A stretch of 64,000 nt of DNA from the NCBI GenBank assembly GCA_964650305.1, contig CAZYST010000001.1, positions 49,953-113,952 of the forward strand, written 5' to 3'. A program made the translations under genes and the position numbers. The stretch is from an uncultured Lachnospiraceae bacterium. Its GTDB lineage: Bacteria; Bacillota; Clostridia; TANB77; CAG-508. Positions 35,714 to 63,227 of this stretch are shown piece by piece (position 1 is the stretch's first letter; each line of letters starts with the position of its first letter). Below the pieces are notes generated by a model. It saw nothing but the letters and a program-made list of their open reading frames with translations. It made no database searches and was not told the origin of the DNA.

Positions 35714-35742
35714 ACTTTTAAAGTTTACTTCCTTATAACTTT

Positions 35743-36672: not shown

Positions 36673-36778
36673 AATAAAATCACTCCTTTTTCGTATATTA
36701 ATATTATATCATATTATTTCCAAAAAAGAAAGTGATTATTCGCTTTTTGTTTTGTTGTTTCCATGTGAGATATTTTGA

Positions 36779-36982
36779 TATTATACCATATTCCCAAAGA
36801 ATTATTTTAATGCAATTACATCAAAATGCCCGCCCATTTTGAAATCTCATACTTGTCTAACCTCTAAATCTAACCATATATACAAGTATTATAAAAAGGA
36901 AGGTCCTGTAATACAATACAAATATAAAAACGTATTAATTTCAGTCGAACAATTTAAGATTGGATTAATAGTACAAAAATAA
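36779..36982 (+). pseudogene. Start-less, internally deleted remnant of a paralogue of ORF 34721..35713
   Basis: The open frame reads ...KCPPILKSHTCLTSKSNHIYKYYKKEGPVIQYKYKNVLISVEQFKIGLIVQK*. The intact gene reads CNNIFKNNKTCKQ...DPVLQKY...ITAKEFEDWIDTTK. The tail DNA matches about 24 of 28 nt. Confidence 0.5.
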
Positions 36983-37000
36983 AGGAACTTTACGGTTCCT

Positions 37001-37606
37001 TTATACTCCCTCATTTCTTGTTTGAAACCACTCATGATTTTCTATTCTCATATAATATACCGTTAATTTTGTATACAACATATAACATGCAAATTGTGTC
37101 AACGATGCTACTCGTTTTACAATCTCTCTATCTAAAGCTGTTTTTATAACATTACGATTAAATGCTTCACTTTGTGAAAAATCCACAAAATAATTGTCTA
37201 AAAAAGAGTTTTTAAAGCACATCTTAGCCGAATAAACATTATCCTTTAAATCTCTTTTTTCATCATCATTAAACGTACCTAAACTTATATCAAAAAGAGG
37301 CGCTATTATTATACTTTTATCACGTTGTAAATCACATGTATTACTTAATATTATGCCTTTCGTCATATATGTAGTTGTGGTTCCATCTTCATTTTTTATT
37401 GAAAATGGTATTTTATCAACAATATCTCCTTGACTCAATTCATTTAAAAGACTAGAACAAAACCAACTATGTTGAGTCATATCAATTTGTTTAACAGCAT
37501 CGCGTACTGCATTTTTAATTTCTGTATCAATTGATGGAAATAAACGATTACAATATTCACTAAAATATCTAAGCATAGTAATCAAAGAAATTATTTTTTG
37601 GTTCAA
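37001..37606 (-). CDS. Hypothetical protein, gene 3 of an unknown three-gene cassette
   Basis: 201-aa ORF that overlaps gene 2 by 38 nt, or by 8 nt if it starts at M11 (37576). No motif recognised. Confidence 0.5.
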   Translation of the reverse strand: MNQKIISLITMLRYFSEYCNRLFPSIDTEIKNAVRDAVKQIDMTQHSWFCSSLLNELSQGDIVDKIPFSIKNEDGTTTTYMTKGIILSNTCDLQRDKSIIIAPLFDISLGTFNDDEKRDLKDNVYSAKMCFKNSFLDNYFVDFSQSEAFNRNVIKTALDREIVKRVASLTQFACYMLYTKLTVYYMRIENHEWFQTRNEGV

Positions 37607-37886
37607 CAGCTAATTTTTTTATAATAACTTCTTGAGAATCTTTCTCAGATTTACCAAAAAACTTTTCATCTTTATACATTTGCATTATTAATTCTTTTTC
37701 AGACATATTACAAACATTTGCAGAAATGTAATATTTTCCATCATCTGAAAAAGTAGCATTATATATATTTTTTAATTTAAAATCATCCAAATTAATACAC
37801 CTAACATAAGCATATTCAGGCTGTGAATATTTATGAATATCTTTAGGTATATCTGCTGAACAAGAACTAAAAAACATATTGTTCAT
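37569..37886 (-). CDS. Hypothetical small protein, gene 2 of the cassette
   Basis: 105-aa ORF lying 8 nt after the gene 1 stop. The likely start is M4 (37877), given GAAAGGA RBS spacing. Confidence 0.45.
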   Translation of the reverse strand: MNNMFFSSCSADIPKDIHKYSQPEYAYVRCINLDDFKLKNIYNATFSDDGKYYISANVCNMSEKELIMQMYKDEKFFGKSEKDSQEVIIKKLAVEPKNNFFDYYA

Positions 37887-37894
37887 CCTTTCTA

Positions 37895-38647
37895 TTAATT
37901 AATCTTTCCCGTATCTACAAAAACCTCGATTTTATTTTGCAAATCATCTCTAACTGTTAAAAACATATTCTTTATGATTTCTGTATTATTAGTATAATTT
38001 TCATTACTATCAAAGCTATATTTATCATTCAACTCATAGCTTATTGAAATATACTCTTTTGTGATTGTTGCATCATTCAAAGAAATCAACGGAAATATTA
38101 TTGTATTCTGACCTGGTGTAATTTGTTTTTGCATAGTAAAATCTTTAGAATTATTAATGGTCAAAATTCTATAATATTTATTATCAATTACCATAGATGC
38201 TCTCATACCAACTTCACTAAAAGTATTTTCATTAACAGACGAATTTAAAAGATTTTGTTGTATTGTTTGAATCGGATTTTCAACTTCTTTTTCTAAATTT
38301 ACAAACACAGCAGAATATAATACTTTTACTTCTTTTGATATTAATAGATTATATATTTTACTTGCTCTCTCTTCCATATAATCTATACATTTAGAAAAAT
38401 CTTCATTAAAATTCCCATCATAATTTGTTGTTATTTGCACATTAATTGTTGACATATTAAATATAGTATGTCCTGATTTAGATTGCGAATTAATTCTAGG
38501 AACTATTGGATCTACATTGGCTGGTAATCCCATATAATTAAATGCTGGAAAGTATTCTATTAATTTAGAATTTAGCTCTTCAAAGATTCCTTTAGTATTA
38601 TCATATTTTTCAAACCAAAATGTAACAACAATATTTTTTATTTTCAT
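37895..38647 (-). CDS. Hypothetical protein, gene 1 of the cassette
   Basis: 250-aa ORF with a GGAGAATGAATAATG RBS/start. Appears to be a two-lobed beta-rich protein. No catalytic motif recognised. Confidence 0.5.
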   Translation of the reverse strand: MKIKNIVVTFWFEKYDNTKGIFEELNSKLIEYFPAFNYMGLPANVDPIVPRINSQSKSGHTIFNMSTINVQITTNYDGNFNEDFSKCIDYMEERASKIYNLLISKEVKVLYSAVFVNLEKEVENPIQTIQQNLLNSSVNENTFSEVGMRASMVIDNKYYRILTINNSKDFTMQKQITPGQNTIIFPLISLNDATITKEYISISYELNDKYSFDSNENYTNNTEIIKNMFLTVRDDLQNKIEVFVDTGKIN

Positions 38648-38895
38648 TATTCATTCTCCTTTAAATATATATCCGAAATAATTATATCATTTATTAAATA
38701 TTTTTTCCACTTTTTTTAAAAAATATTGCATTTTATACATCTTTACCATACACTTTCATATTATTTTTCCAAAACATCCGTTGTCGGTTAGACTTTTACA
38801 TATTTCACATTGTATAATTAATGTATACAATCTTTAACTTGTAATTTCATTGTAGATTACAAAAATACTCTCTCCCACACAGGAAGGAGGATAAT

Positions 38896-40096
38896 ATGGC
38901 AGGGAGTATAGAAAAAAGAGGCGAAAATACATATAGGTTAGTATATGCATGTGGGTACAACCTAGATGGTTCTATCGCCAAGTACACTAAAACAGTGCAT
39001 TGTAGTAAAAAGGAAGCAGAAATCGAACTTGCTCAGTTTGTTACTAAAATACAAAATGGTATGGTTGCTGAACCTAAGTCTATAACTTTCAAAGACTTTG
39101 TTGAAATCTGGAAACGAGATTATGGTACAAAAGATTTAGCACCTGGTACTTATGCAAGATATGTTAGAATTTTAGAAACTAGAATTCTTCCCTACTTTGG
39201 TAAGTTCAAGTTAGATAAGATTAAACCAACAGACATTATGAAATTTTATGACATGTTAGAAAATGATACACAGATCAAAAGACTTAAAAATAACAGAGGT
39301 GAAAGATTATCTAAACCACTATCTAAGAAAACTATTTTAGAACATCACAGGTTACTTAGAGCAATGCTTCACAAAGCTGTTTACTGGCAACTAATTGCAA
39401 ATAACCCAGCAGAAAGAGTTCAACTACCAAAAGCTAAGAAACCTAAAAGAAGATATTACGATGATGAACAATGCAAACTTCTATTAGAAAATCTTGAAAA
39501 TCAAGAATTAAAATACAAAGTAGCTATTACAATAACAATATTTACTGGAATGAGACTTCGGTGAACTTCTAGGACTAGAATGGTCTGATATTGATTTTAA
39601 CAATGGAATAATTAGTATTAACAAATCTAGTCAATATTTATGTGATAAAGGAATATTTACCAAGACACCTAAAACTGATAGTTCAATTAGAGATGTTGCA
39701 GTGCCTACATTTGTTATTTCTCTACTTAGTGAGTATAAGTTATGGTATGATGAACAAAAAGCTTTGTATGGCGAATTATGGATTAATTCAGATAGGTTAT
39801 TTGTACAAAACGATGGCAAACCAATGCACCCATCTACAATTAGTAAATGGTTTGTAAAATTTGTTAAAGAATGTGGTCTTCCTGAAATTAGCTTTCATGG
39901 ATTAAGACACACAAATGCTACACTACTAATATCTCAAAATATAGATGTTGCAGCTGTAGCAGCACGACTAGGACATGCACAAATTTCAACTACATTTAAT
40001 TTTTATGTGCATCCTGTTATTTCACACAATAAAGTTGCAGGAAATGTTTTAGAAAATTTATTAATACCAGGAAAAAATATAGAAAATCTAAATTGA
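38896..40096 (+). pseudogene. int: Tyrosine recombinase (phage-integrase family) disrupted by a +1 frameshift near 39556-39560
   Basis: N-terminal MAGSIEKRGENTYRLVY... The frame ends at ..FTGMRLR* (39564). It continues in the next frame as GELLGLEWSDIDFNNG...HGLRHTNATLL...LGHAQISTTFNFYVH, which supplies the R, HxxR and Y catalytic residues. Confidence 0.8.
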
Positions 40097-40574
40097 GATT
40101 TTTATTGATATATCAACTACTTTACGGATTATTTAAGTTCGTTATTTCCCCAAGATTTCCCCAAAAGGCATTTTTAGGGTAATTTTGGAAGAAATTTAAT
40201 GGTAAGAAAAAAGTCTCAATTACTTGAGACTCTAATATTATATCAATTTATTCTTTAAAGGAATACGAGCTTAATTCCATAAAGTTATGAGCAATTTAAA
40301 ATATCAAAATAATTTCTAACACTATAAAAAATTCTAATTTTATACTTTTCGAAATGCTCTGATTATATTCACAGTACGATTATATCTATCTGTAAATTAT
40401 CCTAAATACAATTCAGTTACTTTTGGAATTACTTTATCTAAGAATCCGATCTTGTTATTATCACTTAAATCCCCTAAATAATTTTAACCATTATAAATTT
40501 ACCATTTTATCCTTGTATCTTATCTAAAATTTTTATATAATTGCTTCAAGGAAATTTTTAGAAAGAGAGAAAAA

Positions 40575-41966
40575 ATGATTGAAATAATATGTGGAGAATT
40601 AATTTACAGAAGAAAAAAATATCATTTTTCATTTCAAGATAACATCTTAACAATGATACCATTAAAACTCAAAAAATATTCTTTCGCTGATTTTTTGATT
40701 GACGAAGATGATACAACTAATAAAAATATCAATATTAACGGAATAACAGAAAAGAACTTTCACATATGTTTTTTAAATGTAAAGCCAAAAAAATTTGGAT
40801 CTGGTACATTTAGATGTTTTGTTCCCGCATATATTTTAAATAAAAATAATGGATTATATCCTGTTCCTAAAATTGACAATATAGAAAGTATAATTTTTAA
40901 AGGAGCGCCAATAGATAACTTTTACCATCCAAAGCAAATCGTAAATTATAATAATAACAATAAAGATATCACTATCAATGTCAACTTAAATGAGTACACA
41001 CCAGAAAAATTTGAATTAAATAAAGAAACTATCATAATATCTTCTGAATATGTCGTACCATATTCTAGAAATATAAACGAAGTTTTAAATGTATCATCTT
41101 CTTTTGAAATACAATTCAAAAATCCTCAAAAGATTTGTAACATATTAAAAACATATTTCAAAATTCAAAAATTTTTTGGATTTCTAAATAATAGAAAAAT
41201 AATTAAATGGGATACAATAATTTTAAGAAAAAAAGTTTATTTAGAAGATCAAAAGAAATATTTACCTATAGATTTATTTTTATATATTGCGCATGATCCA
41301 AACACAAAAACTGACATTGAAAATTATATGAATTCAATAACATTTAAAGATATTAAAAATAATTTTTTAGAAATTTATAAAAATGTTACAAAAAAAGATT
41401 ATAATGTTTACTATATGCCTTTAAATAAAAAGGAGAATTTACTTGTTGACAATAACAAATTTTTAAAAATAGCATATACTTTTGAATCACAAATGAGACT
41501 AAGTTATCCTGACTTTAAATCTTCCATTAACGAAAATTTTTATTATTCTAAAAATTATATCTTAAAAAATATAAATGCAGAAATAAAAAATCTTTCTACC
41601 ATTAATGGAACCAAGAAAAAAATAAAATACTTAAATCAATTTAAAGATATAATAGAAAAATCTGATGGAAATTTAGAAGAAAAAATATTATATTGTTTTA
41701 AAAAATTTGATAATATTATTTCTTCTAAAAAAGAGGCTTTATTATCCAACTATCACTTAAAGAATTTATCTTATGAAGTTTTATCTAAAGCTTTTGTTAA
41801 AAGACGAAATAAAATTGCACACGGAGAATTCACTGGAAATTTTGAAGATATTGACATTATTTCATATATTTTACTACAAATATGTATTTATTGTTTAATT
41901 TTAGAGCGTTCATCTGTTTCACCAGAATCCATTCAAAATATATGTGACAAACTTTTTAATATTTAA
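40575..41966 (+). CDS. HEPN-domain protein, ApeA-like abortive-infection candidate
   Basis: 463 aa. C-terminal KRRNKIAHGEF contains the R-x4-H HEPN motif (RNxxxH type). Large uncharacterised N-terminal domain. Single gene with its own RBS. Confidence 0.55.
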   Translation: MIEIICGELIYRRKKYHFSFQDNILTMIPLKLKKYSFADFLIDEDDTTNKNININGITEKNFHICFLNVKPKKFGSGTFRCFVPAYILNKNNGLYPVPKIDNIESIIFKGAPIDNFYHPKQIVNYNNNNKDITINVNLNEYTPEKFELNKETIIISSEYVVPYSRNINEVLNVSSSFEIQFKNPQKICNILKTYFKIQKFFGFLNNRKIIKWDTIILRKKVYLEDQKKYLPIDLFLYIAHDPNTKTDIENYMNSITFKDIKNNFLEIYKNVTKKDYNVYYMPLNKKENLLVDNNKFLKIAYTFESQMRLSYPDFKSSINENFYYSKNYILKNINAEIKNLSTINGTKKKIKYLNQFKDIIEKSDGNLEEKILYCFKKFDNIISSKKEALLSNYHLKNLSYEVLSKAFVKRRNKIAHGEFTGNFEDIDIISYILLQICIYCLILERSSVSPESIQNICDKLFNI

Positions 41967-41987
41967 AATTATTTTATAGGAGGTTTT

Positions 41988-42749
41988 ATGAAAAATACAA
42001 ATTTTTTAAATCAAACCATATATGTAAAAATTGATAGACCAATAGGCAGTAGTCATCCAAAATATCCTGATCATATCTACTTAGTTAATTATGGTTATGT
42101 TCCCAATACAATAAGCGGTGACGGTGAAGAATTAGACTGTTATATCTTAGGCGAATATAAACCACTAACAGAATACACAGGAAAATGTATTGCCATTATT
42201 CATAGATTAAATGATAATGATGATAAATTAGTTATTGCACCAGAAAATAAAAATTATTCAGATGATGAAATAAAATTATTAACCGATTTTCAAGAAAAAT
42301 TTTACCAAATTGAAATTATACGTGACCAAAATTATCTAGAATTCAGTAAAAACATTCCCGAATTATCCGTTACTAATTTAGAAAACAGCTTAAATTTCTA
42401 TAAAACCATAGGATTTAAAGTTGAATATGATAGACCAGAAAATAAATTTGCTTTTATAAGCTTAGGAAAAATTCAATTTATGTTACAAGAAATTTCTGAA
42501 AATGATAAATGGGATATTGCACCACTTGTTTATCCTTTTGGAAACGGTATAAATTTTCAATTAGAAGTAGAAAATTTATATAATATATATTCAAATTTAA
42601 AAAATTCTACTTATAAAATTACTTTTGAAATAGAAGAAAATTGGTATAGACAAGAAAATAAATTACTTGGAAATAAAGAATTCTTAGTTCAAGATCCAGA
42701 CGGATATTTATTAAGATTTTCAGAAGATTTAGGAGAAAAAGAAGTATAG
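41988..42749 (+). CDS. Fusion of a short inorganic-pyrophosphatase-like domain with a glyoxalase/bleomycin-resistance (VOC) domain
   Basis: The N-terminal ...NYGYVPNTISGDGEELDCYILG resembles the PPase D-G-D-P-L-D-V box. The C-terminal LSVTNLENSLNFYKTIGFKV...LVQDPDGYLLRFSE is VOC-like. Confidence 0.55.
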   Translation: MKNTNFLNQTIYVKIDRPIGSSHPKYPDHIYLVNYGYVPNTISGDGEELDCYILGEYKPLTEYTGKCIAIIHRLNDNDDKLVIAPENKNYSDDEIKLLTDFQEKFYQIEIIRDQNYLEFSKNIPELSVTNLENSLNFYKTIGFKVEYDRPENKFAFISLGKIQFMLQEISENDKWDIAPLVYPFGNGINFQLEVENLYNIYSNLKNSTYKITFEIEENWYRQENKLLGNKEFLVQDPDGYLLRFSEDLGEKEV

Positions 42750-43203: not shown

Positions 43204-44691
43204 TTTATTTTTCTACTAATACCATTTATATGCTATAATGTTTTTTGTCTGATTAGTAGATTAGGAAAGGTTATAATTCCCTATTATATTTTGATATGAT
43301 ATAATTAAGCTATCTGGATGTACATACCTAGGCTGGTTATAATTCCCTATTATATTTTGATATGATATAATCTATTTGACTTACCTGATTTAGTAGCAGA
43401 AGTTATAATTCCCTATTATATTTTGATATGATATAATTAATAAAAATAAAATAATAACTAATATCCAGTTATAATTCCCTATTATATTTTGATATGATAT
43501 AATTTTACGCTCTGGATAATGTGTGTCGTGTCGGTTATAATTCCCTATTATATTTTGATATGATATAATTAGAGAATTCTTTTTCAGTTCTGTTAACTTG
43601 TTATAATTCCCTATTATATTTTGATATGATATAATGAAGGAATAGCACCTGTTGAAGTTCCAACAGTTATAATTCCCTATTATATTTTGATATGATATAA
43701 TTTGCTAGCTACCAATAAAGCAGCAATACAAGTTATAATTCCCTATTATATTTTGATATGATATAATCTTTCCTAATCTACTAATCAGGCATCAGACGTT
43801 ATAATTCCCTATTATATTTTGATATGATATAATACTATTCATTACAACAATTAGTACAAGAAAGTTATAATTCCCTATTATATTTTGATATGATATAATA
43901 ATTTAAGTCCAAATACAACATATTCAATAGTTATAATTCCCTATTATATTTTGATATGATATAATTTTGAAACTAAAATGTTATATTATTAATATGTTAT
44001 AATTCCCTATTATATTTTGATATGATATAATACTTATATGGTGTTTCTGCATCGTGGCTAGGTTATAATTCCCTATTATATTTTGATATGATATAATTAT
44101 GAAAACTATAGAAGATACATACAATGGGTTATAATTCCCTATTATATTTTGATATGATATAATTTGTACCATTCTCTTATTGCACTTCCTAAAGTTATAA
44201 TTCCCTATTATATTTTGATATGATATAATAAACATTAGAAATTATGGCAGAAAGTGAGGGTTATAATTCCCTATTATATTTTGATATGATATAATTAGAA
44301 AAGCTATATCTAGGTTGAAATAGTTGTTATAATTCCCTATTATATTTTGATATGATATAATTTAAAATAAGTCAATCAAATAAAATAACTTGTTATAATT
44401 CCCTATTATATTTTGATATGATATAATATCCAAATCATAATTAAAATAATATTTGACGTTATAATTCCCTATTATATTTTGATATGATATAATAAAAGCA
44501 CAATTTGAAGAAATAATGATAAGGTTATAATTCCCTATTATATTTTGATATGATATAATTTTACAAAATGGAGATTACATAACTGCTTAGTTATAATTCC
44601 CTATTATATTTTGATATGATATAATTATTAGATTGTTGTGTTAATAAACAACAAAGTTATAATTCCCTATTATATTTTGATATGATATAAT
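43204..44691 (+). CRISPR. Type II-C CRISPR array: 22 identical 36-nt repeats (43270-44691), 21 spacers of 30 nt, plus one degenerate repeat (43204-43239) and one relic 30-nt spacer
   Basis: Repeat is GTTATAATTCCCTATTATATTTTGATATGATATAAT with an exact 66-nt period. The strand is assigned from the TGATATAAT extended -10 box at the 3' end of each repeat and from the predicted tracrRNA polarity. Confidence 0.97.
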
Positions 44692-44788: not shown

Positions 44789-45109
44789 TTAAAAAAACGA
44801 TAAAGTTTCATAATCTACTGGTTTATCATAAATAGATTTTCTTCCTAATAAAATTTCAACACTCTCATACTGTCTTTCAGTTATTACCAATACTCTTATT
44901 GCACCTTCATCAGGAATATTCATTTTCAATCTTTGTTTATGTAATTCTACCATATCATTTCCATTGCAAACTCTTGCATATACAGAAAATTGTATCATAT
45001 AGTATCCATCTTTTAATAAAAAATTTCTAAATTGAGTAGCTTTCCTTCTTTCTTGTTTAGTTTTAACTGGTAAATCAAAAAATACTAATATTCTCATAAA
45101 TTTATGCAT
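44789..45109 (-). CDS. cas2: CRISPR-associated endoribonuclease Cas2
   Basis: MRILVFFDLPVKTKQERR...FSVYARVC ferredoxin-like Cas2 pattern. Overlaps the cas1 stop. Confidence 0.9.
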   Translation of the reverse strand: MHKFMRILVFFDLPVKTKQERRKATQFRNFLLKDGYYMIQFSVYARVCNGNDMVELHKQRLKMNIPDEGAIRVLVITERQYESVEILLGRKSIYDKPVDYETLSFF

Positions 45110-46007
45110 ACCTATACTCTTCTATTGGAGTTATAATATATGGTAATTTTATAAAATTTTTTCCTTTATTTATACTTGTTGAATAACTTTTTATCATATA
45201 TTCAATAGCTCCCTGAACATTAAATTTTTTACCATCTATTAAAACCAAACAATTAATTAAATTATATAAAATCTTTTTATCTTCTGGCATTAAAAATTTT
45301 TTACTAAAATCTATATTTGAAACAACATATAAATCTACAAGTGGTCTAAAACACTCGATAAAATCATCTGCAAGATTAAAATTATTTAATTGATTATGAT
45401 GAAATATTCCTAATGCTGGCTCAAATCCATACATTATCAAAGTTCTAGCAATCATTCCTCTAATAATTGCATAACCATAATTTAATGAAGCATTTTCTAT
45501 GCATTCAATATTTCTATTAAAAGTCCTTCCAAATAATTCTCTAAAATAAAATGACGCTGCTTTTGCTTCAACATTTTTCGTATCACCTGATGTAATTCCT
45601 TTTTTCATTTCTTCAAGAATATTATAATGTTTTCTTCCTAGATATTTTAAAACATCTGCTTGATTTTGAATTTTTACATTTATAATATCTTGCCATATAC
45701 GTTTATTTAAAGGCTTTGGAATTCCAAATTGTAATTTAATGTTTTTTAATTGCCTTGAATAATTATTTGTGCCTATCAATATCCCAGTTGGTAAATGTTT
45801 TTCATCACAAATATAAACTACTATATCATGTTCTATAAATTTTCTTAAAGCATATGTGCTTACATTTGTTCTTTGAGATTCAATGCAAATACTATTAATA
45901 TCTTCTAATGGTATTTTATATTCTGCATTTTCTTTTTGTACTATTAATTGTTCATTTTTTATTTTTATATGAACATCATTTTGTACATAAACATTTCTAA
46001 AAGCCAT
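45102..46007 (-). CDS. cas1: CRISPR-associated endonuclease Cas1 (type II)
   Basis: 301 aa. ...NASLNYGYAIIRG...GIFHHNQLNNFNLADDFIECFRP contains the Cas1 active-site region. Confidence 0.92.
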   Translation of the reverse strand: MAFRNVYVQNDVHIKIKNEQLIVQKENAEYKIPLEDINSICIESQRTNVSTYALRKFIEHDIVVYICDEKHLPTGILIGTNNYSRQLKNIKLQFGIPKPLNKRIWQDIINVKIQNQADVLKYLGRKHYNILEEMKKGITSGDTKNVEAKAASFYFRELFGRTFNRNIECIENASLNYGYAIIRGMIARTLIMYGFEPALGIFHHNQLNNFNLADDFIECFRPLVDLYVVSNIDFSKKFLMPEDKKILYNLINCLVLIDGKKFNVQGAIEYMIKSYSTSINKGKNFIKLPYIITPIEEYRYA

Positions 46008-46084: not shown

Positions 46085-49000
46085 CTATTTTTTAATATTG
46101 AAAGGTAATCTTTTTTCTGGTAGTTTTACTTTACTATAATTTCCTAAAATATCAACTGTATATTTTTCTAATATTTTTAACTCTTTTATTCCAATTTTCT
46201 TTACATATTTATTATCATGTGTTTGAATATTTATCACTGCATTAGAAATATCCGCTTTAACATAATATGCAAAAACTTCATCTACTTCAATTGTTTTATT
46301 TTCTTTATTATTTGGATTTAACTTTATTTTATTTTTTCCTACTATATGTATCAAATCTTTTGGATATATAGAAAATATAAAGTTTTCATCGTTCATTTCT
46401 TTCCATTGAGCATATGGTTTTCCACCTACACAAGTTTTATTTGGCAACACATCTTTTACAACATCTGATACATATATTGGTATAAAATAATATCCTTCAT
46501 TTTCTACATAAAAAATGTCTAATCTTACACAATCTCCATTTCCAGCAATTGATTTTCCTTCATTAAATTCTACTCCTAAAGTCATTTTTTCTTCTATTTT
46601 TACTTTTTTTACCAAAGGTCCTTTAGTGCCATCTGCTTTAGGTTTATAAAAATCTTCCTTAAAAGCTTGTTCTGCATTTCCATTAAATTTTATTAATTGT
46701 TCTTTTAATGCATTATATAATAATTTATCATCTTGTTTACATTTTTCTGGATATCCTTCTATTTCTCCGTTTTTTAATTTCAATTTTTTTAGTTCTGTTT
46801 TAGTAACAGATTTTATAGAATCCTCTTCTTTTTTCACTCCTCTAACAGTATCTAAGTGTGCAACACCTGTTACTTTTCTTCTTGGCATTTTTGAAACAAA
46901 TATTGGTTCCAATTCATCTATTTTTTCTTCTGTATCATATGTATAAATTTTTTCTGCTGCTAAGCATTCTATCATTCTTTCTTTTGTTTGACAGTTTGTT
47001 CTTATATCTAATTCTTTTCTAAATTTATCCCATGGCTCTGGAAAAGTTTTTTTGTTTTTTTCTTCATATTCTTTTGCTGTCAATACTTCTCCTGTTAATA
47101 TATCTACATATTCTCCATTATTTTGCATATATCTTCCGTCTCTGTATTGATAATAATTAGTAATTTCATTTATCATTTTTTGAGTAGTAATGGCAATTAT
47201 TGTAGCATCTATCGCATGATGTATATCTCCATCTTCTCTTATTTTTTCAATACCTAATCTTTTTCTTATATGAGATGTAATTTGTCCATTTACAGTCCAA
47301 ACTTTTCTTTCAAAATTATCATTATTTGAAAATTCTAAATGGTTTCTTATTAGGTTATACATAATTTTACATATATATTGAGTGTCCTTTAAGTTTCTTT
47401 CTTTCCATCCTTCTATATCTTCTTTATCTACTTGTTGTTTTAGTAGTTTTCGTTTCTTGGCTGGATTTTTTACAATATTGTTTATTCTTATTTCATATTC
47501 ATCTAAATTTCTTCCTGCTTCTTTTTCATATTGATATGGAACTCTATTTCCTTTTTGTCTGTTTTCACTAGCTAAAACTAAAACTTTATTACTATATGAA
47601 TCATCAAAACACATACTATATGGAATAATATGATCTACATCAACTGCTTCTGTAAATAAATCATTAATTGATATAGTTTTTCCTGAATATAAACAAATAT
47701 TTTGTTGTTCTTTCCATAATTTGAATTTTACTATATCTTGACCTGTAGGATTTTTCTTATATTCCATTATTGTTTTCAAAGCATTTTCATTTTTTTTCAT
47801 ATTTTCTTCTTGCGATTTTTGTATTTTATTTCTGTCTTGGAAATTTTTTCCTATTTCTCTTGCTAATTCTATTACTACTACATCTGGTTTTCCATATATA
47901 CTGTTATATTTTAATGTTATTGCATTTAATACTTTTATTGATTGAGATACTGCTCTTCTTACAACTGGATTAGATATTTCTTGTTCTAAATCTTTTAACT
48001 TTAATTTAGATTTTTTTACAGTATTTACAGTTCCTCTAAAATCTTCATAAACATTATCTACTGCTTTATCGTATGTATATCCTTTTTCTAGTTCTGGAAT
48101 TATTTTTTTCATTGCTTTTATTGATAAACTTCCTACTTTTGAAAAAGATAATGGTAACACTTCATTTATAGCTTCATCTGACAAATTTGTATTTTCTTTT
48201 AAATAATTTATTCTTTTCTCATCATTTTTATATATTGTTAATGCATATCCTAAAAAATCTAAATCTTCTTTTGATATTTTTTCAATATAATTTTTTTCTA
48301 TATGATTTAATGCAGTTTTTAATTTATTATAGCTTTCAAATTCCTTTAGTTTTCTTTCTTTTTCAACTTCTTTATTGCTTTCTTCTGAAAAATCTATTGA
48401 ACTTTTGTATGTTATTAAATTAAATCTTTCATAATTAGATAAATTTAATTCTTTTCTAATATTATCAAAAGTTACTGTGCTTTTTGATAATATTAAATTT
48501 TTTATTTTTTCCTTTTCTTCTTTTGTTAATTCTCTTTTTTCAACCTTTTTTTCTTTGCAATCATTTATTATTGTTTTTTCTATTTTTATATGATTTAACA
48601 TTTGTAATAATTTAAAATATTCAAAAGTATATGTTGCTTTTGCCGCTCTTTTTTCTTCCTTTTCAAATGTACAGTTTCCTAACATTTTTTCTATTTGGTT
48701 TCCACCATATGGACTTTCTTCTCCTGGTCCATCGTCAAAATTTCTTTGTCCTTCGAAAATTTCCAAATATTCTTTTATAAATTCATCAGTTACAAATGAA
48801 TTTAATTCTTTTTGTTTATTTAATATTAAAATTATTTCATCTACTAACAATTTTCTTAATGTTGTATTTTTATAGTCATCTACTGAATTTTTAATTTTTA
48901 TTTGTGTATTTCCTTTTGAATCTAAAATATATTCTCCATTTTTATTTTTGAATTTGAATTTATCATCTTTTAAATACATTTCTGCAACAGTTCTATAATT

Positions 49001-49486
49001 TTTATTTTTCATTAAATCAGCATTTTCTTTAGTTGCTGTTAATAGTTGTCCTGCTTCTTTATTTGATTCTTCAGATTTACTATTAGATTTATAACCTCTT
49101 TTTTTCACAAAACTTATTAAAACTCTTGCTAATTCTTTATTAGTTAATTTCTCATCTAATCCTTGCACTCTTAATTCGTATACATTATATTGAAATTTAT
49201 AATTTTCATACATATCTTCTATTTCTTTTTTAGAAATAATATTATATCTTTCTAAAAGACGTTTGGTTCTTTCTATTCTATGTTTTTTTCTTCGTAATCT
49301 ACGACGTAATCCTCTTTTATCTCTTCTATCTTTAGCTAATGGTGAACCGTCTTTAGGTTTTTCAGCAGCATCAAATATTCTACTTCCTAAATCAATGATT
49401 CTTATTGGATTTCCTTTCATATCATCTTCTATTACTGCCCACCCTACTGATGTAATTCCAATATCTAATCCTATTCTATATCCCAT
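46085..49486 (-). CDS. cas9: Cas9, compact type II-C-like (about 1133 aa)
   Basis: RuvC-I YRIGLDIGITSVGWAV. Arg-rich bridge helix RRDKRGLRRRLRRKKHR. HNH DVDHIIPYS...N. RuvC-III HHAIDA. GGGAGG RBS 4 nt before ATG 49486. No csn2 or cas4 is present in the locus. Confidence 0.95.
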   Translation of the reverse strand: MGYRIGLDIGITSVGWAVIEDDMKGNPIRIIDLGSRIFDAAEKPKDGSPLAKDRRDKRGLRRRLRRKKHRIERTKRLLERYNIISKKEIEDMYENYKFQYNVYELRVQGLDEKLTNKELARVLISFVKKRGYKSNSKSEESNKEAGQLLTATKENADLMKNKNYRTVAEMYLKDDKFKFKNKNGEYILDSKGNTQIKIKNSVDDYKNTTLRKLLVDEIILILNKQKELNSFVTDEFIKEYLEIFEGQRNFDDGPGEESPYGGNQIEKMLGNCTFEKEEKRAAKATYTFEYFKLLQMLNHIKIEKTIINDCKEKKVEKRELTKEEKEKIKNLILSKSTVTFDNIRKELNLSNYERFNLITYKSSIDFSEESNKEVEKERKLKEFESYNKLKTALNHIEKNYIEKISKEDLDFLGYALTIYKNDEKRINYLKENTNLSDEAINEVLPLSFSKVGSLSIKAMKKIIPELEKGYTYDKAVDNVYEDFRGTVNTVKKSKLKLKDLEQEISNPVVRRAVSQSIKVLNAITLKYNSIYGKPDVVVIELAREIGKNFQDRNKIQKSQEENMKKNENALKTIMEYKKNPTGQDIVKFKLWKEQQNICLYSGKTISINDLFTEAVDVDHIIPYSMCFDDSYSNKVLVLASENRQKGNRVPYQYEKEAGRNLDEYEIRINNIVKNPAKKRKLLKQQVDKEDIEGWKERNLKDTQYICKIMYNLIRNHLEFSNNDNFERKVWTVNGQITSHIRKRLGIEKIREDGDIHHAIDATIIAITTQKMINEITNYYQYRDGRYMQNNGEYVDILTGEVLTAKEYEEKNKKTFPEPWDKFRKELDIRTNCQTKERMIECLAAEKIYTYDTEEKIDELEPIFVSKMPRRKVTGVAHLDTVRGVKKEEDSIKSVTKTELKKLKLKNGEIEGYPEKCKQDDKLLYNALKEQLIKFNGNAEQAFKEDFYKPKADGTKGPLVKKVKIEEKMTLGVEFNEGKSIAGNGDCVRLDIFYVENEGYYFIPIYVSDVVKDVLPNKTCVGGKPYAQWKEMNDENFIFSIYPKDLIHIVGKNKIKLNPNNKENKTIEVDEVFAYYVKADISNAVINIQTHDNKYVKKIGIKELKILEKYTVDILGNYSKVKLPEKRLPFNIKK

Positions 49487-49499
49487 AAAACCTCCCATA

Positions 49500-49664: not shown

Positions 49665-49746
49665 TAACTCTCCATATTTAAATTATACCACACTTTTATT
49701 TTTCTTAGGAAAAATATTACTTTTTACGTTCAATTTGTACTATTTT

Positions 49747-58435: not shown

Positions 58436-58939
58436 ATGATAAAAAAAGATGAACAATCAGAAAATCAAATTGAAGAAGATATAAAAAAATTTGCAAATAT
58501 CGTATACACTATCGCATATGCAAACACTTCTTCAGTTTCAGATGCAGAAGACGTATTTCAAGATGTTTTTGTAAAATACTGTAAATATTTTAATAGATTA
58601 ACAGATGATATTCACAAAGAAAGATGGCTTAAAAAAGCAACAAAACATTCTGCTATTAATTTTAATAAGCACAAAAAATTAACTCAATGTTTAGAACTTG
58701 ACGAAAATATTTTAATAGATACTATGCAAGAAGTTGAAGAACCAAAAGTATCTCAACTAATAGATTATCTAAAAGATACTTATAAAGTCGTTCTTAAACT
58801 TTACTATTTAAATAATATGCATATTAAAGAAATTGGAAAAGAATTAGATATAACAGAAAGTGCTGTTAAAACAAGATTAAAAAGAGGCAGAAGAGAATTA
58901 AAAGAAATTTTAAATAAGGTTGGATTTTATTATGAATAA
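58436..58939 (+). CDS. ECF-type RNA polymerase sigma-70 factor
   Basis: 167 aa. Region 2 (AEDVFQDVFVKY...RWLKKATKHSAINF) and region 4 HTH (MHIKEIGKELDITESAVKTRLKRGR). Confidence 0.85.
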   Translation: MIKKDEQSENQIEEDIKKFANIVYTIAYANTSSVSDAEDVFQDVFVKYCKYFNRLTDDIHKERWLKKATKHSAINFNKHKKLTQCLELDENILIDTMQEVEEPKVSQLIDYLKDTYKVVLKLYYLNNMHIKEIGKELDITESAVKTRLKRGRRELKEILNKVGFYYE

Positions 58940-59963
58940 TAATTCAGATAACTTAATTAAAAATGAATGTAACCAAATAAAAAGTCAAATTAAACCTTCT
59001 GATGAACTTATTGATAAAACTATTTTAAAAGTGCGAAAAGTGCAAGAAGAACGTACATACAAAAAGCAAAAAACAAAAAAACTTTTAACAAAAGTTTTAG
59101 GTACTTTTACAACTGTAGTTATTTTAGCAGAAGGTGCTACTTTTGCATTTAAAAAGCAAACTTCTTTAGACATGCTTTTTTCAACTATTGATAAAGGTAT
59201 AGAAACTGCTCTTGAATATGGCAATATAAAAAACGTAGATATGGACTATATTGAAATTGAAAGCGGATTAAAGGTAAAAGCAGAATTTGCTTTAATAAAC
59301 GAATATAATTTTGATTTAGTTTTAAGATTTAGTGGAATTGAAGAATATTGTTCAAACACAAATATTAATAATATTAATCAAATTTTATTAAAAGACCTTG
59401 AAGTTACTGACAATTTTGAAAATTATTATACATTCTATACCATATCGCCAAATTATATATCATCATATTTAAGTGCATCTTCAGTAAAATTAGAAAATGA
59501 TGTTTATTATATATTGCATTGCTATAATGAAAATAATTCCTTTCCAGCAACTAATATTGAAAATATAAATATTTCTTTTTCAGAAATATCAATAGATAAT
59601 TATTATTTAAAACATGATATTAATTTTAATATTGAATTTAACAATTTAAATTTAGATAATAATTCAACAAATTTCGAAATTACAAATAAACCAGATTATA
59701 TAGAAAATTATAATATTGTTCTTTCAAGTACAAATCTTAAAGTAGAATTATTTTTTAATACATCTAGTTCGATCAACAAAGATTCTGTTTACTTAAAAGA
59801 TAATAATAGAAATATTTATTATCCTAATAATGATTTTAGATTTAGAGATGATTATATTTTATTTGTATTTCCTGTTAGTAATTATCAAGAAATAGAAAAA
59901 TTAAAATTAAATTTTGAAATAAATAATAATAAAGAAAAATTAAAACTTACAAAACAAAGCTAG
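58932..59963 (+). CDS. Putative anti-sigma factor (single-pass membrane protein)
   Basis: Overlaps the end of the sigma gene. Short cytoplasmic N-terminus, one TM (LGTFTTVVILAEGATFAF), and an N/Y-rich extracytoplasmic domain. Confidence 0.55.
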   Translation: MNNNSDNLIKNECNQIKSQIKPSDELIDKTILKVRKVQEERTYKKQKTKKLLTKVLGTFTTVVILAEGATFAFKKQTSLDMLFSTIDKGIETALEYGNIKNVDMDYIEIESGLKVKAEFALINEYNFDLVLRFSGIEEYCSNTNINNINQILLKDLEVTDNFENYYTFYTISPNYISSYLSASSVKLENDVYYILHCYNENNSFPATNIENINISFSEISIDNYYLKHDINFNIEFNNLNLDNNSTNFEITNKPDYIENYNIVLSSTNLKVELFFNTSSSINKDSVYLKDNNRNIYYPNNDFRFRDDYILFVFPVSNYQEIEKLKLNFEINNNKEKLKLTKQS

Positions 59964-59990
59964 GATAAAATCCTAGCTTTGCTATTATAG

Positions 59991-60009
59991 TGAGAAACAG
60001 CAAAAATAT
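59991..60009. repeat. Left arm of a perfect 19-bp inverted repeat bracketing ORF 60047..60529
   Basis: tgagaaacagcaaaaatat is the exact reverse complement of 60555-60573. Confidence 0.95.
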
Positions 60010-60046
60010 TATTACTAACTATTTTTTATTGTTTCAATTTTTAAAT

Positions 60047-60529
60047 TTACTGCCAAGTATAATATGTTACAGTTGCTTTAATTGTGGCACCTGTAAAATT
60101 AAATACTCTTATAATGTAGGTGCTTTCTGCATTTAAGGAAATCCAATCTTCTTTTTGGGTTGTTCCATCTGGATTGATATACACCGATCTAATGATTTCA
60201 CCATCATCATAAAAATTGGTAAGGAATTTTCCTGTTGCCACACCACTTGTAACTACAGCTTTTGTTTCAAATGCTGCATAATTATACATCGTAGCAAAGC
60301 ACGCAGCCATAATTTCTGCACCATTTTCCATTTCTTTTTCTCTCTGATCCCATAATTGTGGAGATACTCCATCATCTTCTTCAATAGGGGGAATTTCAAT
60401 TTCAACTACATGAACTTCCGCATTTTCTGGGATACCTTCTGGCCAATCGCTTTCTGATGCAAAAGCAGTACACGGCATAATCATTGTAACAATCATCAGA
60501 ATAGCTAAAAATACACTCATTTTTTTCAT
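60047..60529 (-). CDS. Small secreted protein (signal peptide ...CTAFA|SES), GC-elevated
   Basis: 160 aa. AGGAGG RBS 8 nt before the ATG. Beta-rich C-terminal half. Confidence 0.7.
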   Translation of the reverse strand: MKKMSVFLAILMIVTMIMPCTAFASESDWPEGIPENAEVHVVEIEIPPIEEDDGVSPQLWDQREKEMENGAEIMAACFATMYNYAAFETKAVVTSGVATGKFLTNFYDDGEIIRSVYINPDGTTQKEDWISLNAESTYIIRVFNFTGATIKATVTYYTWQ

Positions 60530-60554
60530 ACTGCATACCTCCTAAAATGTTTAT

Positions 60555-60573
60555 ATATTTTTGCTGTTTCTCA
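60555..60573. repeat. Right arm of the 19-bp inverted repeat (11 nt upstream of the RBS)
   Basis: atatttttgctgtttctca. Confidence 0.95.
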
Positions 60574-60713
60574 AACTACTCTTTGTTCACTCTTAAACAT
60601 AATTATGAGTATTAATGAACTTAGAGTAAAATTAATTAGTTACACAATAATATTATCAAAATTCAAATTAATTTTGGAAAAATATTACTTTTTTTCAGTA
60701 AAATATTTTTAAT

Positions 60714-60760
60714 TTAAAAAAGTGATAAGTCATTCAAAAAATAATTTATCACTTTTTTCG
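60714..60760 (-). terminator. Terminator-like hairpin after ORF 60782..61372
   Basis: 9-bp stem aagtgataa/ttatcactt (60720-60754) with a 17-nt loop, flanked by A- and T-runs. Confidence 0.5.
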
Positions 60761-60781
60761 TTATTTTATAATCAAAAAATT

Positions 60782-61372
60782 TTATAAATTAGGTTTTTCA
60801 ACATCTTCATCTTTTACAATACCTTCTAACATATAAGATGAGTATTGATAAATTTGTAATTCTTTTAACATACTTACTGTATGTACTACAAATCCTGTAT
60901 CTTTATTTACTATTTTTCTATCTCTTCGAAGATTTATCACATAACAATCATTAATAGTGTTTATGTATCTAAAAATATTTGATTTTATTGCCTCTTCGAA
61001 AGTTGCTTCTTCAAATAATAATTTAAAATCACCATCTTCTAAATTAGGATTTTCACTAAATACTGGTTCCCTTTTCTGGTATGTTCCATCATCTGCAAGT
61101 TCATATTCAATAAATTCTTGTGTATTTAAATTTCCCCACATCAATGTAAGCATTTTTCCATTTTGAGAAAATTTATAATTGTATTTACCATCTTTATATA
61201 AAATTTCATATTCTTGAATATAATTGTCACCTATTTTATGAATTACTTTTGTATATAAATTAGTTGCATTTTCTAGGAATCCGTCTGTTTCGTTATAAAT
61301 TTCTTTTAAAATTTTATAATTTCTAAAAAAATTTAATCCAAATAAAATTAATAGCACCACTAAAATTATCAA
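60782..61372 (-). CDS. Membrane-anchored hypothetical protein
   Basis: 196 aa from a TTG start. The GGGAGGG RBS lies 34 nt upstream and only ATA/ATT codons are at RBS distance, so the start is uncertain. Confidence 0.5.
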   Translation of the reverse strand: MIILVVLLILFGLNFFRNYKILKEIYNETDGFLENATNLYTKVIHKIGDNYIQEYEILYKDGKYNYKFSQNGKMLTLMWGNLNTQEFIEYELADDGTYQKREPVFSENPNLEDGDFKLLFEEATFEEAIKSNIFRYINTINDCYVINLRRDRKIVNKDTGFVVHTVSMLKELQIYQYSSYMLEGIVKDEDVEKPNL

Positions 61373-61487
61373 ACTAGTTTTTAAAATCTTATTTTTTATT
61401 TTATTCCCTCCCTTTTATATTATACATCTAAATTATATAGATTACTATATACTTTTATAAAGGAGAATGAAAAAACTCATCCCCCGC

Positions 61488-61503
61488 AAATTAAATGCAC
61501 ACA
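61488..61503. repeat. Left arm of a perfect 16-bp inverted repeat bracketing ORF 61531..61968
   Basis: aaattaaatgcacaca is the exact reverse complement of 61990-62005. Confidence 0.95.
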
Positions 61504-61530
61504 ATAAAATAATTGCTATGTTTTCAATTC

Positions 61531-61968
61531 TTAATTTACAAAATTACATGTAAGTTGAGATAAGGTACAATTAGATGGAGACACTCTTAATGTAACAGTA
61601 TAAGTACCACTTGGAAGGGTTACTCCCATTTTTTCATTATAAGTACCTCCATCACAAACAAAAGAAAGTGAATACACTGTATTGGTGGAATTGTTTTTGA
61701 AGTTAAAAACATATACTCCAGAATTTCCTTTTGAGAGAACACCTGTATAACTCTTAGTAGTTGAATTTATTTTTGCATCTTTACTAAGTGTTACTGTAAG
61801 TGATGAAGTATTTGTTTTCCAAACAAATCCATTTGTAGACCTTGCTTGCTCATACGTTGATTGCATTTCTTTTGTTTCATTTTCCATTGCAAATGCAACA
61901 TTCGAAAACGTGCAAATGCACATAATTGATACTAAACACATACAAATTGTTTTTCTTAAAATTGTCAT
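61531..61968 (-). CDS. Small secreted protein (signal peptide ...NVAFA|MEN), GC-elevated
   Basis: AGGAGG RBS 6 nt before ATG 61968 (MTILRKTICM...). T/S/N-rich beta protein. Confidence 0.7.
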   Translation of the reverse strand: MTILRKTICMCLVSIMCICTFSNVAFAMENETKEMQSTYEQARSTNGFVWKTNTSSLTVTLSKDAKINSTTKSYTGVLSKGNSGVYVFNFKNNSTNTVYSLSFVCDGGTYNEKMGVTLPSGTYTVTLRVSPSNCTLSQLTCNFVN

Positions 61969-61989
61969 AATATTCCTCCTGTTCATGTA

Positions 61990-62005
61990 TGTGTGCATTT
62001 AATTT
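61990..62005. repeat. Right arm of the 16-bp inverted repeat (10 nt upstream of the RBS)
   Basis: tgtgtgcatttaattt. Confidence 0.95.
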
Positions 62006-62273
62006 TCTTCTTTGTACATCATAAATATTCTTTTATGATAACAAAAGAAGTTTGTTCATAAAACTTATACCATATGAACACTTATATTATACACCTATAT
62101 TTTTTTGATGCACAAAATATTACTTTTTTCAACAAAGTATTTTAAATTTTTAAAAACAATAAATTATTTTTTGAATAATTTGTCACTTTTTTCGTTATTA
62201 TGTAATTATAATATGAAAATAATAAAAAAGATGCATTAATTAATTTAATACATCTTTTTAACAAAGGAGGCTT

Positions 62274-63227
62274 TTACATTCCAGGCATTGATGGCATTTG
62301 CATTCCTTCTGGTTTCATACCACCACCCATATTTTCTTTAAAATCTCTATTTCCTTTTTCAAAATTCATTCCACCACTAAAGTTATTTGTTGATGTTTTC
62401 TCTGTTTCTATCATTTGTACACTTTCATTTCCAGTTAATCCAGATTTTATTTCTGTGTATGCATCATTTGATATTCCTGTTTCAACATTTACGTTTTCTG
62501 TTTTTCCATCTTTTACAACAACTACGTAGCTTTGATCATTTGCAGTTTGAATTGCTTCATTTGGTACAGCTATTACATTTTCTGCCTTTTCTACAATTAT
62601 TTCACAAGTAGCAGACATTCCTATTTTTAAATTTCCATTATTTTCAAATGTAACTGTAGCTGTAAAATATGAACCACTTGAACTATATGTTCCTATTTCA
62701 GATATTTTGGTTATATATCCAGTTATTTTTTCATTATTTGCTGAAAGTGTTATATCTACTTCATCACCAATTTCTACTTTATTAATATCAGTTTCGCTAA
62801 TACTTAAACTCATACATAAAGTATCTATTGATTGAATTTCTATATAATGTTCTGATGTACATATTTCATCTTCATTAGGTAAATTACTAGATATTAATAC
62901 ACAATCATATGGTGCTGTTAGATATGTTCCATTTGTATATTCTATAATATTTGTTCCCTCTTCTATAAACAAATTTTCTTCAATTAATAATTCTTCAAAA
63001 TAATATGAAGCATGTAATTTTACTTTTTCATCTAATTCTGAAGATATTTGCCCAGAATTTGATAATGTATTTTCAATAGTTGTTGTTATTGCATTTACTG
63101 TTTTTATATTTGTATTATCTGCCTCTTCTTGATTAGTTGTTGGTTTAAAATATAAAAATAACATTATACATAAAATTAATATTAAAACTATAATTACAAA
63201 AACAATTGGATTTTTTTTCTTATTCAT
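62274..63227 (-). CDS. Efflux-pump periplasmic adaptor (HlyD/MacA-like membrane fusion protein)
   Basis: 317 aa with an N-terminal TM. Beta-barrel region ...IIVEKAENVIAVPNEAIQT...SYVVVVKDGKTENVNVETGISNDAYTEIKSGL. Gly/Met-rich tail. Confidence 0.7.
   Translation of the reverse strand: MNKKKNPIVFVIIVLILILCIMLFLYFKPTTNQEEADNTNIKTVNAITTTIENTLSNSGQISSELDEKVKLHASYYFEELLIEENLFIEEGTNIIEYTNGTYLTAPYDCVLISSNLPNEDEICTSEHYIEIQSIDTLCMSLSISETDINKVEIGDEVDITLSANNEKITGYITKISEIGTYSSSGSYFTATVTFENNGNLKIGMSATCEIIVEKAENVIAVPNEAIQTANDQSYVVVVKDGKTENVNVETGISNDAYTEIKSGLTGNESVQMIETEKTSTNNFSGGMNFEKGNRDFKENMGGGMKPEGMQMPSMPGM

Follow-up and report, generated by a model that had tools for sequence, protein, structure and literature searches.

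We describe a small secreted-protein gene of an uncultured Lachnospiraceae bacterium whose ribosome binding site (RBS) and coding sequence (CDS) are enclosed by the two arms of a perfect inverted repeat. The gene and its repeat, here called cassette 2, lie on the minus strand of a 64,000-nucleotide stretch of contig CAZYST010000001.1 (the window). The sequence at 61488-61503 (AAATTAAATGCACACA) has its exact reverse complement at 61990-62005, matching at 16 of 16 positions, and the bases next to the repeat do not match on either side. The initial annotation of this DNA, made from the sequence alone, had described such a bracket around a secreted-protein gene, and our sequence check confirms it. 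Its spacing also holds, as we measured 10 nt from the 5' arm to the Shine-Dalgarno sequence (SD) and 27 nt from the stop codon to the 3' arm. The protein length that it gave, 155 aa, is that of the longest open reading frame (ORF), whose ATG (61996-61998) falls within the arm; the gene call gives 145 aa. The features of cassette 2 and its immediate flanks are the following:

About 62053-62080: hairpin P0, a further leader hairpin beyond P1
62007-62050, minus strand: leader hairpin P1, CUUCUUUUGUUAUCAUAAA...UUUAUGAUGUACAAAGAAG, ending 1 nt before the 5' arm
61990-62005, minus strand: 5' arm, AAAUUAAAUGCACACA in the mRNA sense, with the SD 10 nt downstream
61975-61979, minus strand: SD GGAGG, unpaired and inside the loop that holds the ORF
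61531-61968, minus strand: CDS, ATG 61966-61968, stop 61531-61533, 145 aa, public gene call P0001
61488-61503, minus strand: 3' arm, UGUGUGCAUUUAAUUU, 27 nt past the stop codon
61462-61485, minus strand: terminator-like hairpin P3, GGGGGAUGAG UUUU UUCAUUCUCC followed by UUUAU, beginning 2 nt past the 3' arm

A second bracketed gene, cassette 1, lies nearby on the same strand:

59991-60573, minus strand: cassette 1, a perfect 19-nt repeat (59991-60009 and 60555-60573) enclosing SD and gene
60047-60529, minus strand: cassette-1 gene, 160 aa, with a signal peptide

The 19-bp stem of cassette 1 has a free energy (dG) of -24.7; a leader hairpin lies 2 nt before its 5' arm and a bidirectional terminator 1 nt after its 3' arm. 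The initial annotation had noted that the two cassettes have nearly the same geometry and unrelated arms. Both points stand: the second gene does have a 19-nt bracket, and no sequence is common to the two pairs of arms. When the window is shuffled by a Markov model, 64 kb contains 0.05-0.2 perfect inverted repeats that are 16 nt or longer and spaced by 300-700 nt, and 0-0.02 that are 19 nt or longer. Three such perfect repeats were observed in the window, the third being a match between a CRISPR spacer and its array flank. One repeat alone could be chance; two with the same geometry exclude it.

Brackets around distant homologues

The cassette-2 protein carries a Sec-type signal peptide (...NVAFA) and has no family match in Pfam or NCBIfam. 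Its AlphaFold model is a nine-strand beta-sandwich (predicted local distance difference test, pLDDT, 90), for which Foldseek gave weak matches (TM score ~0.33): carbohydrate-binding modules, Cry toxin domains, and the C-terminal domain with which C. perfringens enterotoxin binds claudin. The fold has no bearing on the repeat. A word-based homologue search with this protein returned only itself. An exhaustive HMMER search yielded about 35 cluster representatives, mostly secreted, 130-166 aa long and 27-50% identical to it, and located the same domain as repeats within giant proteins. The cassette-1 protein family comprises only four lineages in 5.8 billion proteins. No match was found in Joint Genome Institute (JGI) metagenome scans with the two families, nor in a viral contig scan and a tblastn search against plasmids and phages. 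A hidden Markov model (HMM) of the cassette-2 family weakly matches cassette-1 proteins (E ~0.005-0.008, 13 bits) and BLASTP finds no similarity; from the profile match, the two cassette products may be very distantly related.

We scored the best ungapped helix between the 5' and 3' flanks of each of 1169 ORFs from the window and related loci (labels beginning with L), for which the 99th percentile was a score of 34. This score replaced RNAduplex on long untranslated region (UTR) windows, which did not discriminate (shuffled controls averaged -29 to -33 kcal/mol, with minima to -55); a gene-wide RNAduplex version was confounded by GC content and low-complexity A/U runs. Both window cassettes score above the 99th percentile, and together with the bracketed homologue genes they stand at ranks 3-11 of the 1169 ORFs. 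A bracket is present at all four cassette-2-family loci examined (window, L095, L096, and L099), three of which exceed the 99th percentile. The three homologues come from other organisms and have 34-50% protein identity, and their arms resemble neither one another nor the window arms:

L095: GAAACGAAAGU...UUUGUCAAA with UUUGGCAAA...ACUUUCGUUUC, 11 bp, a 3x4 internal loop, and 9 bp
L096: UCUAAGCGAAAUAUG / CAUAUUUUGCUUAGA, 15 nt, up to 22 bp including G-U pairs
L099: AAAAACCGCUCUAUGU / ACAUAGGGCGGUUUUU, 16 nt

The argument that a recurring architecture speaks for function rather than accident, first made from the two window cassettes, is thus strengthened, as the bracket is found again around distant homologues with different arms. 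The scan also detected another small secreted-protein gene (134 aa) in another Clostridia metagenome-assembled genome (MAG), at L046 17560-17964. Its bracket (ATGGGAAGAAAAATAT / ATATTTTTCTTCTCAT, with one G-U) lies 4 nt before the SD on one side and 11 nt past the stop codon on the other. TATGAC direct repeats were seen upstream of this gene.

Genome searches through the neighbouring HlyD-like gene supplied a comparison set. A scan of GTDB genomes with the single HlyD-like protein gave no match, and a scan with an HlyD-like alignment gave 74 loci with a different downstream context and no cassettes or bracket repeats; these were used as a null set. Two genes in related loci lie within repeats of another kind: a monofunctional transglycosylase-like gene (L026 6460-7325) within a 58-nt inverted repeat with a G-rich core, TTGGGGACGTTTCC, and a 129-aa gene (L051 ~2600-3130) within a 20-nt inverted repeat whose G-rich core, TTTGGGGACGTTCC, is related to the first. 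These repeats form a family distinct from the cassette brackets.

The lineages of cassette 1 allow the arms to be followed through divergence. They are unchanged in a 98%-identical strain. L084 and L089, whose proteins are 55-60% identical to that of cassette 1, have a 29-nt imperfect stem in the same place, in which a CAGC/GCUG core is kept and the flanks are changed. The stem is therefore kept in three of the four lineages despite 40-45% protein divergence. In an ungapped alignment of the arms, 81% of cells are paired, compared with 43-48% when the partner columns are slid, and none of 500 shuffles reached the observed covariation score. Six pairs are altered on both sides (e.g., A-U to G-C and U-A to A-U). 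Compensatory change, which the initial annotation had put forward as a check, was thus found in the cassette-1 lineages; the arms of cassette 2 itself are invariant.

Proposed pairing of the mRNA ends and its alternatives

Across loci the helices measure 16-29 bp with dG values of -17 to -29 kcal/mol; the cassette-2 duplex has 16 bp, a dG of -19.1 kcal/mol, and a pair probability of 0.97 in the full-transcript fold. In full-transcript folds the stem has a pair probability of 0.75-0.99 at all eight loci and is part of the minimum-energy fold at seven; the fold of L046 is in a shifted register. Fold z-scores are -5.1 for cassette 2 and -3.5 for cassette 1. At 7/7 loci with a readable flanking fold, the 5' arm follows the end of a leader hairpin by 0-4 nt, and the 3' arm precedes the start of a terminator or terminator-like hairpin by 0-3 nt. 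In the predicted folds, these two hairpins and the stem come together as a three-way junction with hardly any linker. At every locus the stem leaves out the SD (GGAGG or AAGGAG), which is found 3-14 nt downstream of the 5' arm. On the DNA, the 5' arm of cassette 2 follows a promoter-like module and precedes the SD; the 3' arm comes after the stop codon and is followed by a terminator-like hairpin.

We consider it probable that the arms pair with each other in the mRNA, leader with trailer, as a long-range interaction between 5' UTR and 3' UTR of the kind described for the hbs mRNA of Bacillus subtilis. Both arms would be transcribed in one mRNA, whose leader would have the 5' arm immediately ahead of the SD and whose trailer would have the 3' arm immediately ahead of a terminator-type hairpin. 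A 16-bp stem (dG about -19 kcal/mol) would then close the RBS and the whole ORF into a loop of ~490 nt, and would form a tight three-way junction with the leader hairpin and the 3' hairpin, with almost no single-stranded linker. Such a stem would most likely act as a post-transcriptional clamp, hiding single-stranded entry sites of RNase Y and RNase J1 and tying the 3' end into a compact junction that limits access of 3' exonucleases. It would in this way set the lifetime or the processing of the secreted-protein mRNA.

The imperfections of the helices carry a strand signal. Read in the mRNA sense, they comprise 11 G-U and 1 A-C (binomial P = 0.006); with strand-symmetric helix limits, the same count is 7 G-U and 1 A-C (P = 0.07). 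L096 (core), L099, and L046 each have a single mismatch, which in the mRNA sense is a G-U, and stability is higher for the sense than for the antisense duplex in 6/6 imperfect helices.

These observations bear directly on the alternative that the arms are recombination sites of an invertible RBS and CDS cassette, switched ON and OFF relative to an outside promoter, which we regard as very improbable. Perfect repeats do flank a promoterless RBS and CDS with a promoter-like module outside, and the neighbouring 196/205-aa gene has been flipped between lineages (window and L003 compared with L084 and L089), showing that the locus has been inverted in evolution. However, the G-U bias of the sense strand would be meaningless for DNA, and the arms of both cassettes and of all homologues lack a common motif that a recombinase could recognize. 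Inverted junctions (CTCATCCCCCGCAAATTAAATGCACACATACATGAACAGG for cassette 2 and TTGCTATTATAGTGAGAAACAGCAAAAATATATAAACATTTTA for cassette 1) were absent from 3 cassette-2 and 17 cassette-1 contigs from at least 15 samples, all in the same orientation, although consensus assemblies have limited power to show a minority orientation. Pfam scans found no serine invertase in the 64-kb window (a recombinase elsewhere in the genome is possible), and the only tyrosine recombinase there is a split integrase (38896-40096) that lies in a probable mobile island at a distance of 21 kb. Efficient RecA-dependent inversion also needs repeats longer than 16-19 bp.

Known invertible switches (C. difficile RecV, Hin/Gin, and Bacteroides invertons) resemble the cassettes in having inverted repeats of 15-30 bp around a segment of a few hundred base pairs. 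They differ in that they hold promoters or regulatory leaders, need a recombinase, and occur in both orientations, none of which was seen here. The segment between the cassette-2 arms contains a complete RBS and CDS, with the promoter-like module outside, rather than the promoter, regulatory element, or alternative gene ends of an inverton. Known RecV switches likewise lie in regulatory regions upstream of operons, such as the flagellar switch upstream of flgB (PMC7446863), and not around whole genes. The RecV-type inversion that the initial annotation had thought compatible with dissimilar arms thus finds no support: ~20 contigs lack an inverted junction, the arms share no sequence, and no invertase was found in the window. 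The RNA-level mechanism that it had offered as an equal possibility, in which complementarity alone matters, is favored by compensatory changes, sense-strand G-U pairs, and a conserved three-way-junction geometry. Given the recurrence of the bracket, the compensated arms, the G-U bias, the junction geometry, and the lack of observed inversion, we favor pairing in RNA over inversion of DNA.

The closest parallel is hbs. In B. subtilis, single and compensatory mutations show that a 14-bp interaction of the hbs 5' UTR with its 3' UTR occurs in vivo, limits cleavage of the leader by RNase Y, and has an effect on the 3' decay pathway (PMC5737220; Braun, Durand & Condon 2017). The cassettes resemble hbs in the placement of the stem relative to leader hairpin, SD, and 3' hairpin, with linkers in cassette 2 of 1 nt (5') and 2 nt (3'). 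The cassette-2 duplex, at about -19 kcal/mol, has the same predicted energy as that of hbs, and further shared features are a strong, unsequestered SD downstream of the 5' segment, a wholly enclosed ORF, and a Firmicute host. The cassettes differ from hbs in that their stems have 16-29 bp rather than 14, their arm sequences are unrelated to those of hbs, and their products are small secreted beta-sandwich proteins rather than a nucleoid protein. Furthermore, several genes are involved here, compensatory change is natural, and the module has apparently moved with its gene; the cassettes are known from sequence alone. The proposed shielding from RNases is drawn from the analogy with hbs.

Pairing in RNA could also have the opposite consequence. 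Under this alternative, which we judge rather unlikely, the duplex is a substrate for RNase III that excises a monocistronic mRNA or triggers decay, and not a shield. In its favor are the length and near-perfection of the helices, whose double-stranded region would be extended by coaxial stacking on the neighboring hairpins. Cassette 2 also probably belongs to a polycistron, ahead of the 196-aa gene, and excision would make sense there. RNase III prefers about two helical turns, and the 16 A/U-rich base pairs of cassette 2 are shorter than that. The geometry is moreover that of hbs, whose interaction restricts cleavage, and the SD is not sequestered, unlike that of icaR. In Staphylococcus aureus icaR (Ruiz de los Mozos 2013, PMC3868564; reviewed in PMC7821165), the 3' UTR pairs with its own 5' UTR, again in a Firmicute and again as double-stranded RNA that affects RNase action. 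There, a UCCCC motif of the 3' UTR pairs with the SD, blocks translation, and creates an RNase III site (PMC7821165). By contrast, the cassette-2 SD (61975-61979) is free and lies 10 nt outside the stem (3-14 nt across loci), and it is not paired with the 3' UTR segment in the predicted fold.

Two further systems offer partial parallels to paired mRNA ends. In hok/Sok-type type I toxin mRNAs, an fbi-tac 5'-3' fold-back closes the mRNA into a compact, stable form; their products are small membrane toxins, with an antisense RNA partner and activation by 3' trimming. A long-range 5'-3' helix closing a whole mRNA, predicted for the cassettes, is common to both, but the products here are Sec-type secreted proteins of 134-164 aa, and no antisense partner is evident. 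In ribosomal RNA (rRNA) operons, flanking inverted repeats pair as stalks around the rRNA and are cut by RNase III or Mini-III during maturation. These are likewise inverted repeats around an entire functional RNA, with the difference that the RNA enclosed in the cassettes is an mRNA.

Several points weigh against pairing of the mRNA ends. The larger G-U count (11 to 1) depends partly on G-U-tolerant helix limits, and the bias could in part come from strand-asymmetric C-to-T mutation on the non-template strand. The fourth cassette-1 lineage, L094, has a short leader, a terminator right after the stop codon, and no stem; the stem is thus not obligatory. No covariation can be seen in the cassette-2 arms because only identical copies exist (window, L001, and L002), and the case for cassette 2 therefore rests on its homologues, for which 4 of ~35 family clusters were examined, and on the neighboring cassette. 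We infer that both arms lie on one transcript; the 3' hairpin of cassette 2 is only terminator-like and is followed by another gene. A 16-bp A/U-rich stem that spans 490 nt must also compete with local structure and ribosomes in vivo. Pairing in the cell would follow from the predicted folds, and the effect of the stem on RNase access and mRNA stability would follow from the comparison with hbs.

Recent insertion of cassette 2 and its surroundings

Cassette 2 is strain-specific. Two contigs (L001 and L002) carry identical copies, and a 550-bp segment that contains most of it is missing from L003-L005, which are ~98%-identical strain contigs from another sample set:

61449-61998, minus strand: 550-bp segment missing from L003-L005
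61999-62005: outer 7 nt of the 5' arm (AAATTAA), resident leader, present also in cassette-free strains
61997-61998: AT of the 5' arm, ambiguous in origin
Inner 7-9 nt of the 5' arm (GCACACA): insert

The segment consists of the inner 5' arm, SD, CDS, 3' arm, P3, and 13 further nt, and has a GC content of 30% in a window of 24.6%. The leader hairpin P1 is part of the resident 5' leader and has the same sequence in cassette-free L003. The empty site reads AAATTAA[AT]AGTAAT, that is, ...GAAGAAAATTAA[AT]AGTAAT..., and the 2-bp AT ambiguity is the sole feature common to both junctions. In L003-L005 the same leader leads straight into the gene for the membrane-anchored protein, which has 205 aa there. 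The more distant syntenic locus L084 (HlyD-like protein 83% identical by BLASTP) is also without cassette 2, which makes a gain in the window lineage more parsimonious.

The 5' border of the insertion lies within the 5' arm and the 3' border 13 nt past the terminator-like hairpin, so the repeats are not the termini of a mobile element. An insertion sequence (IS) or miniature inverted-repeat transposable element (MITE) with terminal inverted repeats was accordingly rejected: the indel limits are 61449 and 61998, one arm straddles a limit, the other lies 39 nt inside, and only the 2-bp AT is shared. Together with its 3' arm and 3' hairpin, the gene was recently inserted, as a segment of 550 bp, in the leader of the gene that follows. 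The incoming gene would already have borne a full 5' arm, and the left crossover was probably within 9 nt, AAATTAAAT, that this arm has in common with the resident leader, which would account for the arm spanning the insertion junction.

The ATG of the 205-aa gene in L003 (around 5657) is ATA in the window (61397-61399, minus strand), where the only possible starts of the homologous ORF are a TTG or a GTG further downstream, for a product of 196 or 192 aa. This start-codon loss coincides with the insertion of cassette 2 in the leader of that gene.

The insertion invites the reading that the cassette-2 repeat has no function of its own and is a by-product of the event (microhomology or template switching) or a chance match. 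One arm spans the insertion boundary with 7 nt already present in the empty site, a single 16-nt repeat is expected 0.05-0.2 times per 64 kb at this spacing, and the cassette-2 arms show no variation that could speak for selection. However, the repeat occupies the same position as at the other stem-bearing loci, a few nucleotides before the SD and right before the 3' hairpin; all three homologues examined have arms of their own; and its score exceeds the 99th percentile of the 1169 ORFs. A template-switch scar would also not explain the brackets of orthologues that lack signs of insertion. We therefore find a by-product or chance match improbable, and retain pairing of the mRNA ends as the preferred explanation of the repeat.

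An insertion that runs from within the 5' arm to 13 nt past the hairpin has approximately the extent of a processed mRNA. On this ground, the unit from 5' arm to 3' hairpin could be conceived as a portable, transcript-shaped module that spreads by retro-insertion of copies of its own mRNA or by arm-guided recombination, a proposal to which we give very little credence. If true, the stem would serve mobility besides expression.

The surroundings of the cassettes form a minus-strand locus in the order ABC/MacB-type transporter and HlyD-like genes, a cadherin-like-domain protein, an HlyD-like gene (62274-63227), cassette 2, a 196-aa gene, and cassette 1. In genome collections, the nearest relatives of the flanking gene come from MAGs of the rabbit, human, and ruminant gut that carry the label Clostridia or Clostridium sp. 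CAG. The neighboring features are the following:

62085-62215, minus strand: promoter/leader module, with a palindromic AAAAGTGAYAA element, the motif TGAAAAAAGTAATATTTT, and a -10-like GTATAAT
60782-61372, minus strand: gene for the 196-aa membrane-anchored protein, between cassettes 2 and 1
58436-59963, plus strand: extracytoplasmic function (ECF) sigma factor and putative anti-sigma factor pair, on which the minus-strand locus converges

The promoter/leader module (~130 nt) is duplicated at 60655-60775, ahead of cassette 1. Its two copies sit after the HlyD-like gene and after the 196-aa gene, before cassettes 2 and 1, respectively. Homology between the downstream membrane-anchored genes of the window (196 aa) and L096 (184 aa) was considered and is not established (E = 0.097). 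A promoter and terminator consensus scan was uninformative in this AT-rich DNA (18 sites, 20.8 expected), and Rfam over 59800-62400 gave no family, only a spurious sub-threshold microRNA match.

The motif AAAAAGTRATAW occurs 6 times in the window, where 1.25 are expected:

60682-60693
60717-60728
60746-60757
62117-62128
49714-49725
33804-33815

Four of the six copies are in the promoter modules of both cassettes, and one is ~215 nt upstream of a cas9-like ORF. Related AAAAAGTGATA motifs were seen upstream of the homologous genes in L094 and L095. The AAAAAGTRATAW motif may be a site for a regulator or sigma factor, perhaps for the adjacent ECF sigma factor.

In L084 (3616-4242) and L089 (4039-4668), the homologue of the 196/205-aa gene is inverted together with its promoter module relative to window positions 60782-61372. 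The gene and the cassette-1 homologue there diverge from two inverted copies of AAAAAGTAATATTTT (L084 4305-4342 and 4395-4432). This flip is an evolutionary inversion next to the cassettes.

The third perfect inverted repeat of the window, of 21 nt (43249-43269 and 43768-43788), belongs to a type II CRISPR array: most of the spacer at ~43769-43798 recurs, as its reverse complement, directly beside the cas-distal end. The locus comprises, all on the minus strand:

About 43271-44690: CRISPR array
44789-45109: cas2
45102-46007: cas1
46085-49498: large cas9-like ORF

Positions 32600-42749 are a probable mobile island with two Fic-domain proteins (one fused to a helix-turn-helix domain), a DUF6076 protein, and an ApeA-like protein. 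Its split tyrosine integrase has an N-terminal SAM-like domain (38896-39564) and a catalytic fragment (39701-40096). On the minus strand at 6314-9990 are six tandem genes of 171-212 aa without Pfam match. Two of them (6314-6913 and 9379-9990) resemble type I signal peptidases by eye (SGSM...GD motifs), and the other four resemble TasA/camelysin-type secreted proteins; these resemblances suggest a SipW/TasA-like fibre operon.

Meaning of the proposed ORF-enclosing stems

The cassette-2 repeat is real and non-random, and most likely functional as an RNA element rather than as a DNA switch, a prediction made for an uncultured organism. Few intramolecular interactions between 5' UTR and 3' UTR have been documented in bacteria (hbs, icaR, and RNAIII/hld), and their wider use "requires further investigations" (2021 review, PMC7821165). 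Our findings add natural examples that combine the geometry of hbs with several unrelated or very distantly related small secreted-protein genes, in uncultured gut Clostridia and with compensatory evolution. Such stems can be found computationally, given that a simple scan for 5'/3' complementarity put them in the top 1% of ORFs. There is also a practical warning: inverton finders that rely on inverted repeats will flag such genes as candidate phase-variable cassettes. For the biology of these genes, the findings suggest that ORF-enclosing stems are a reusable and evolvable way to set the fate of an mRNA, and that the module can move with its gene.

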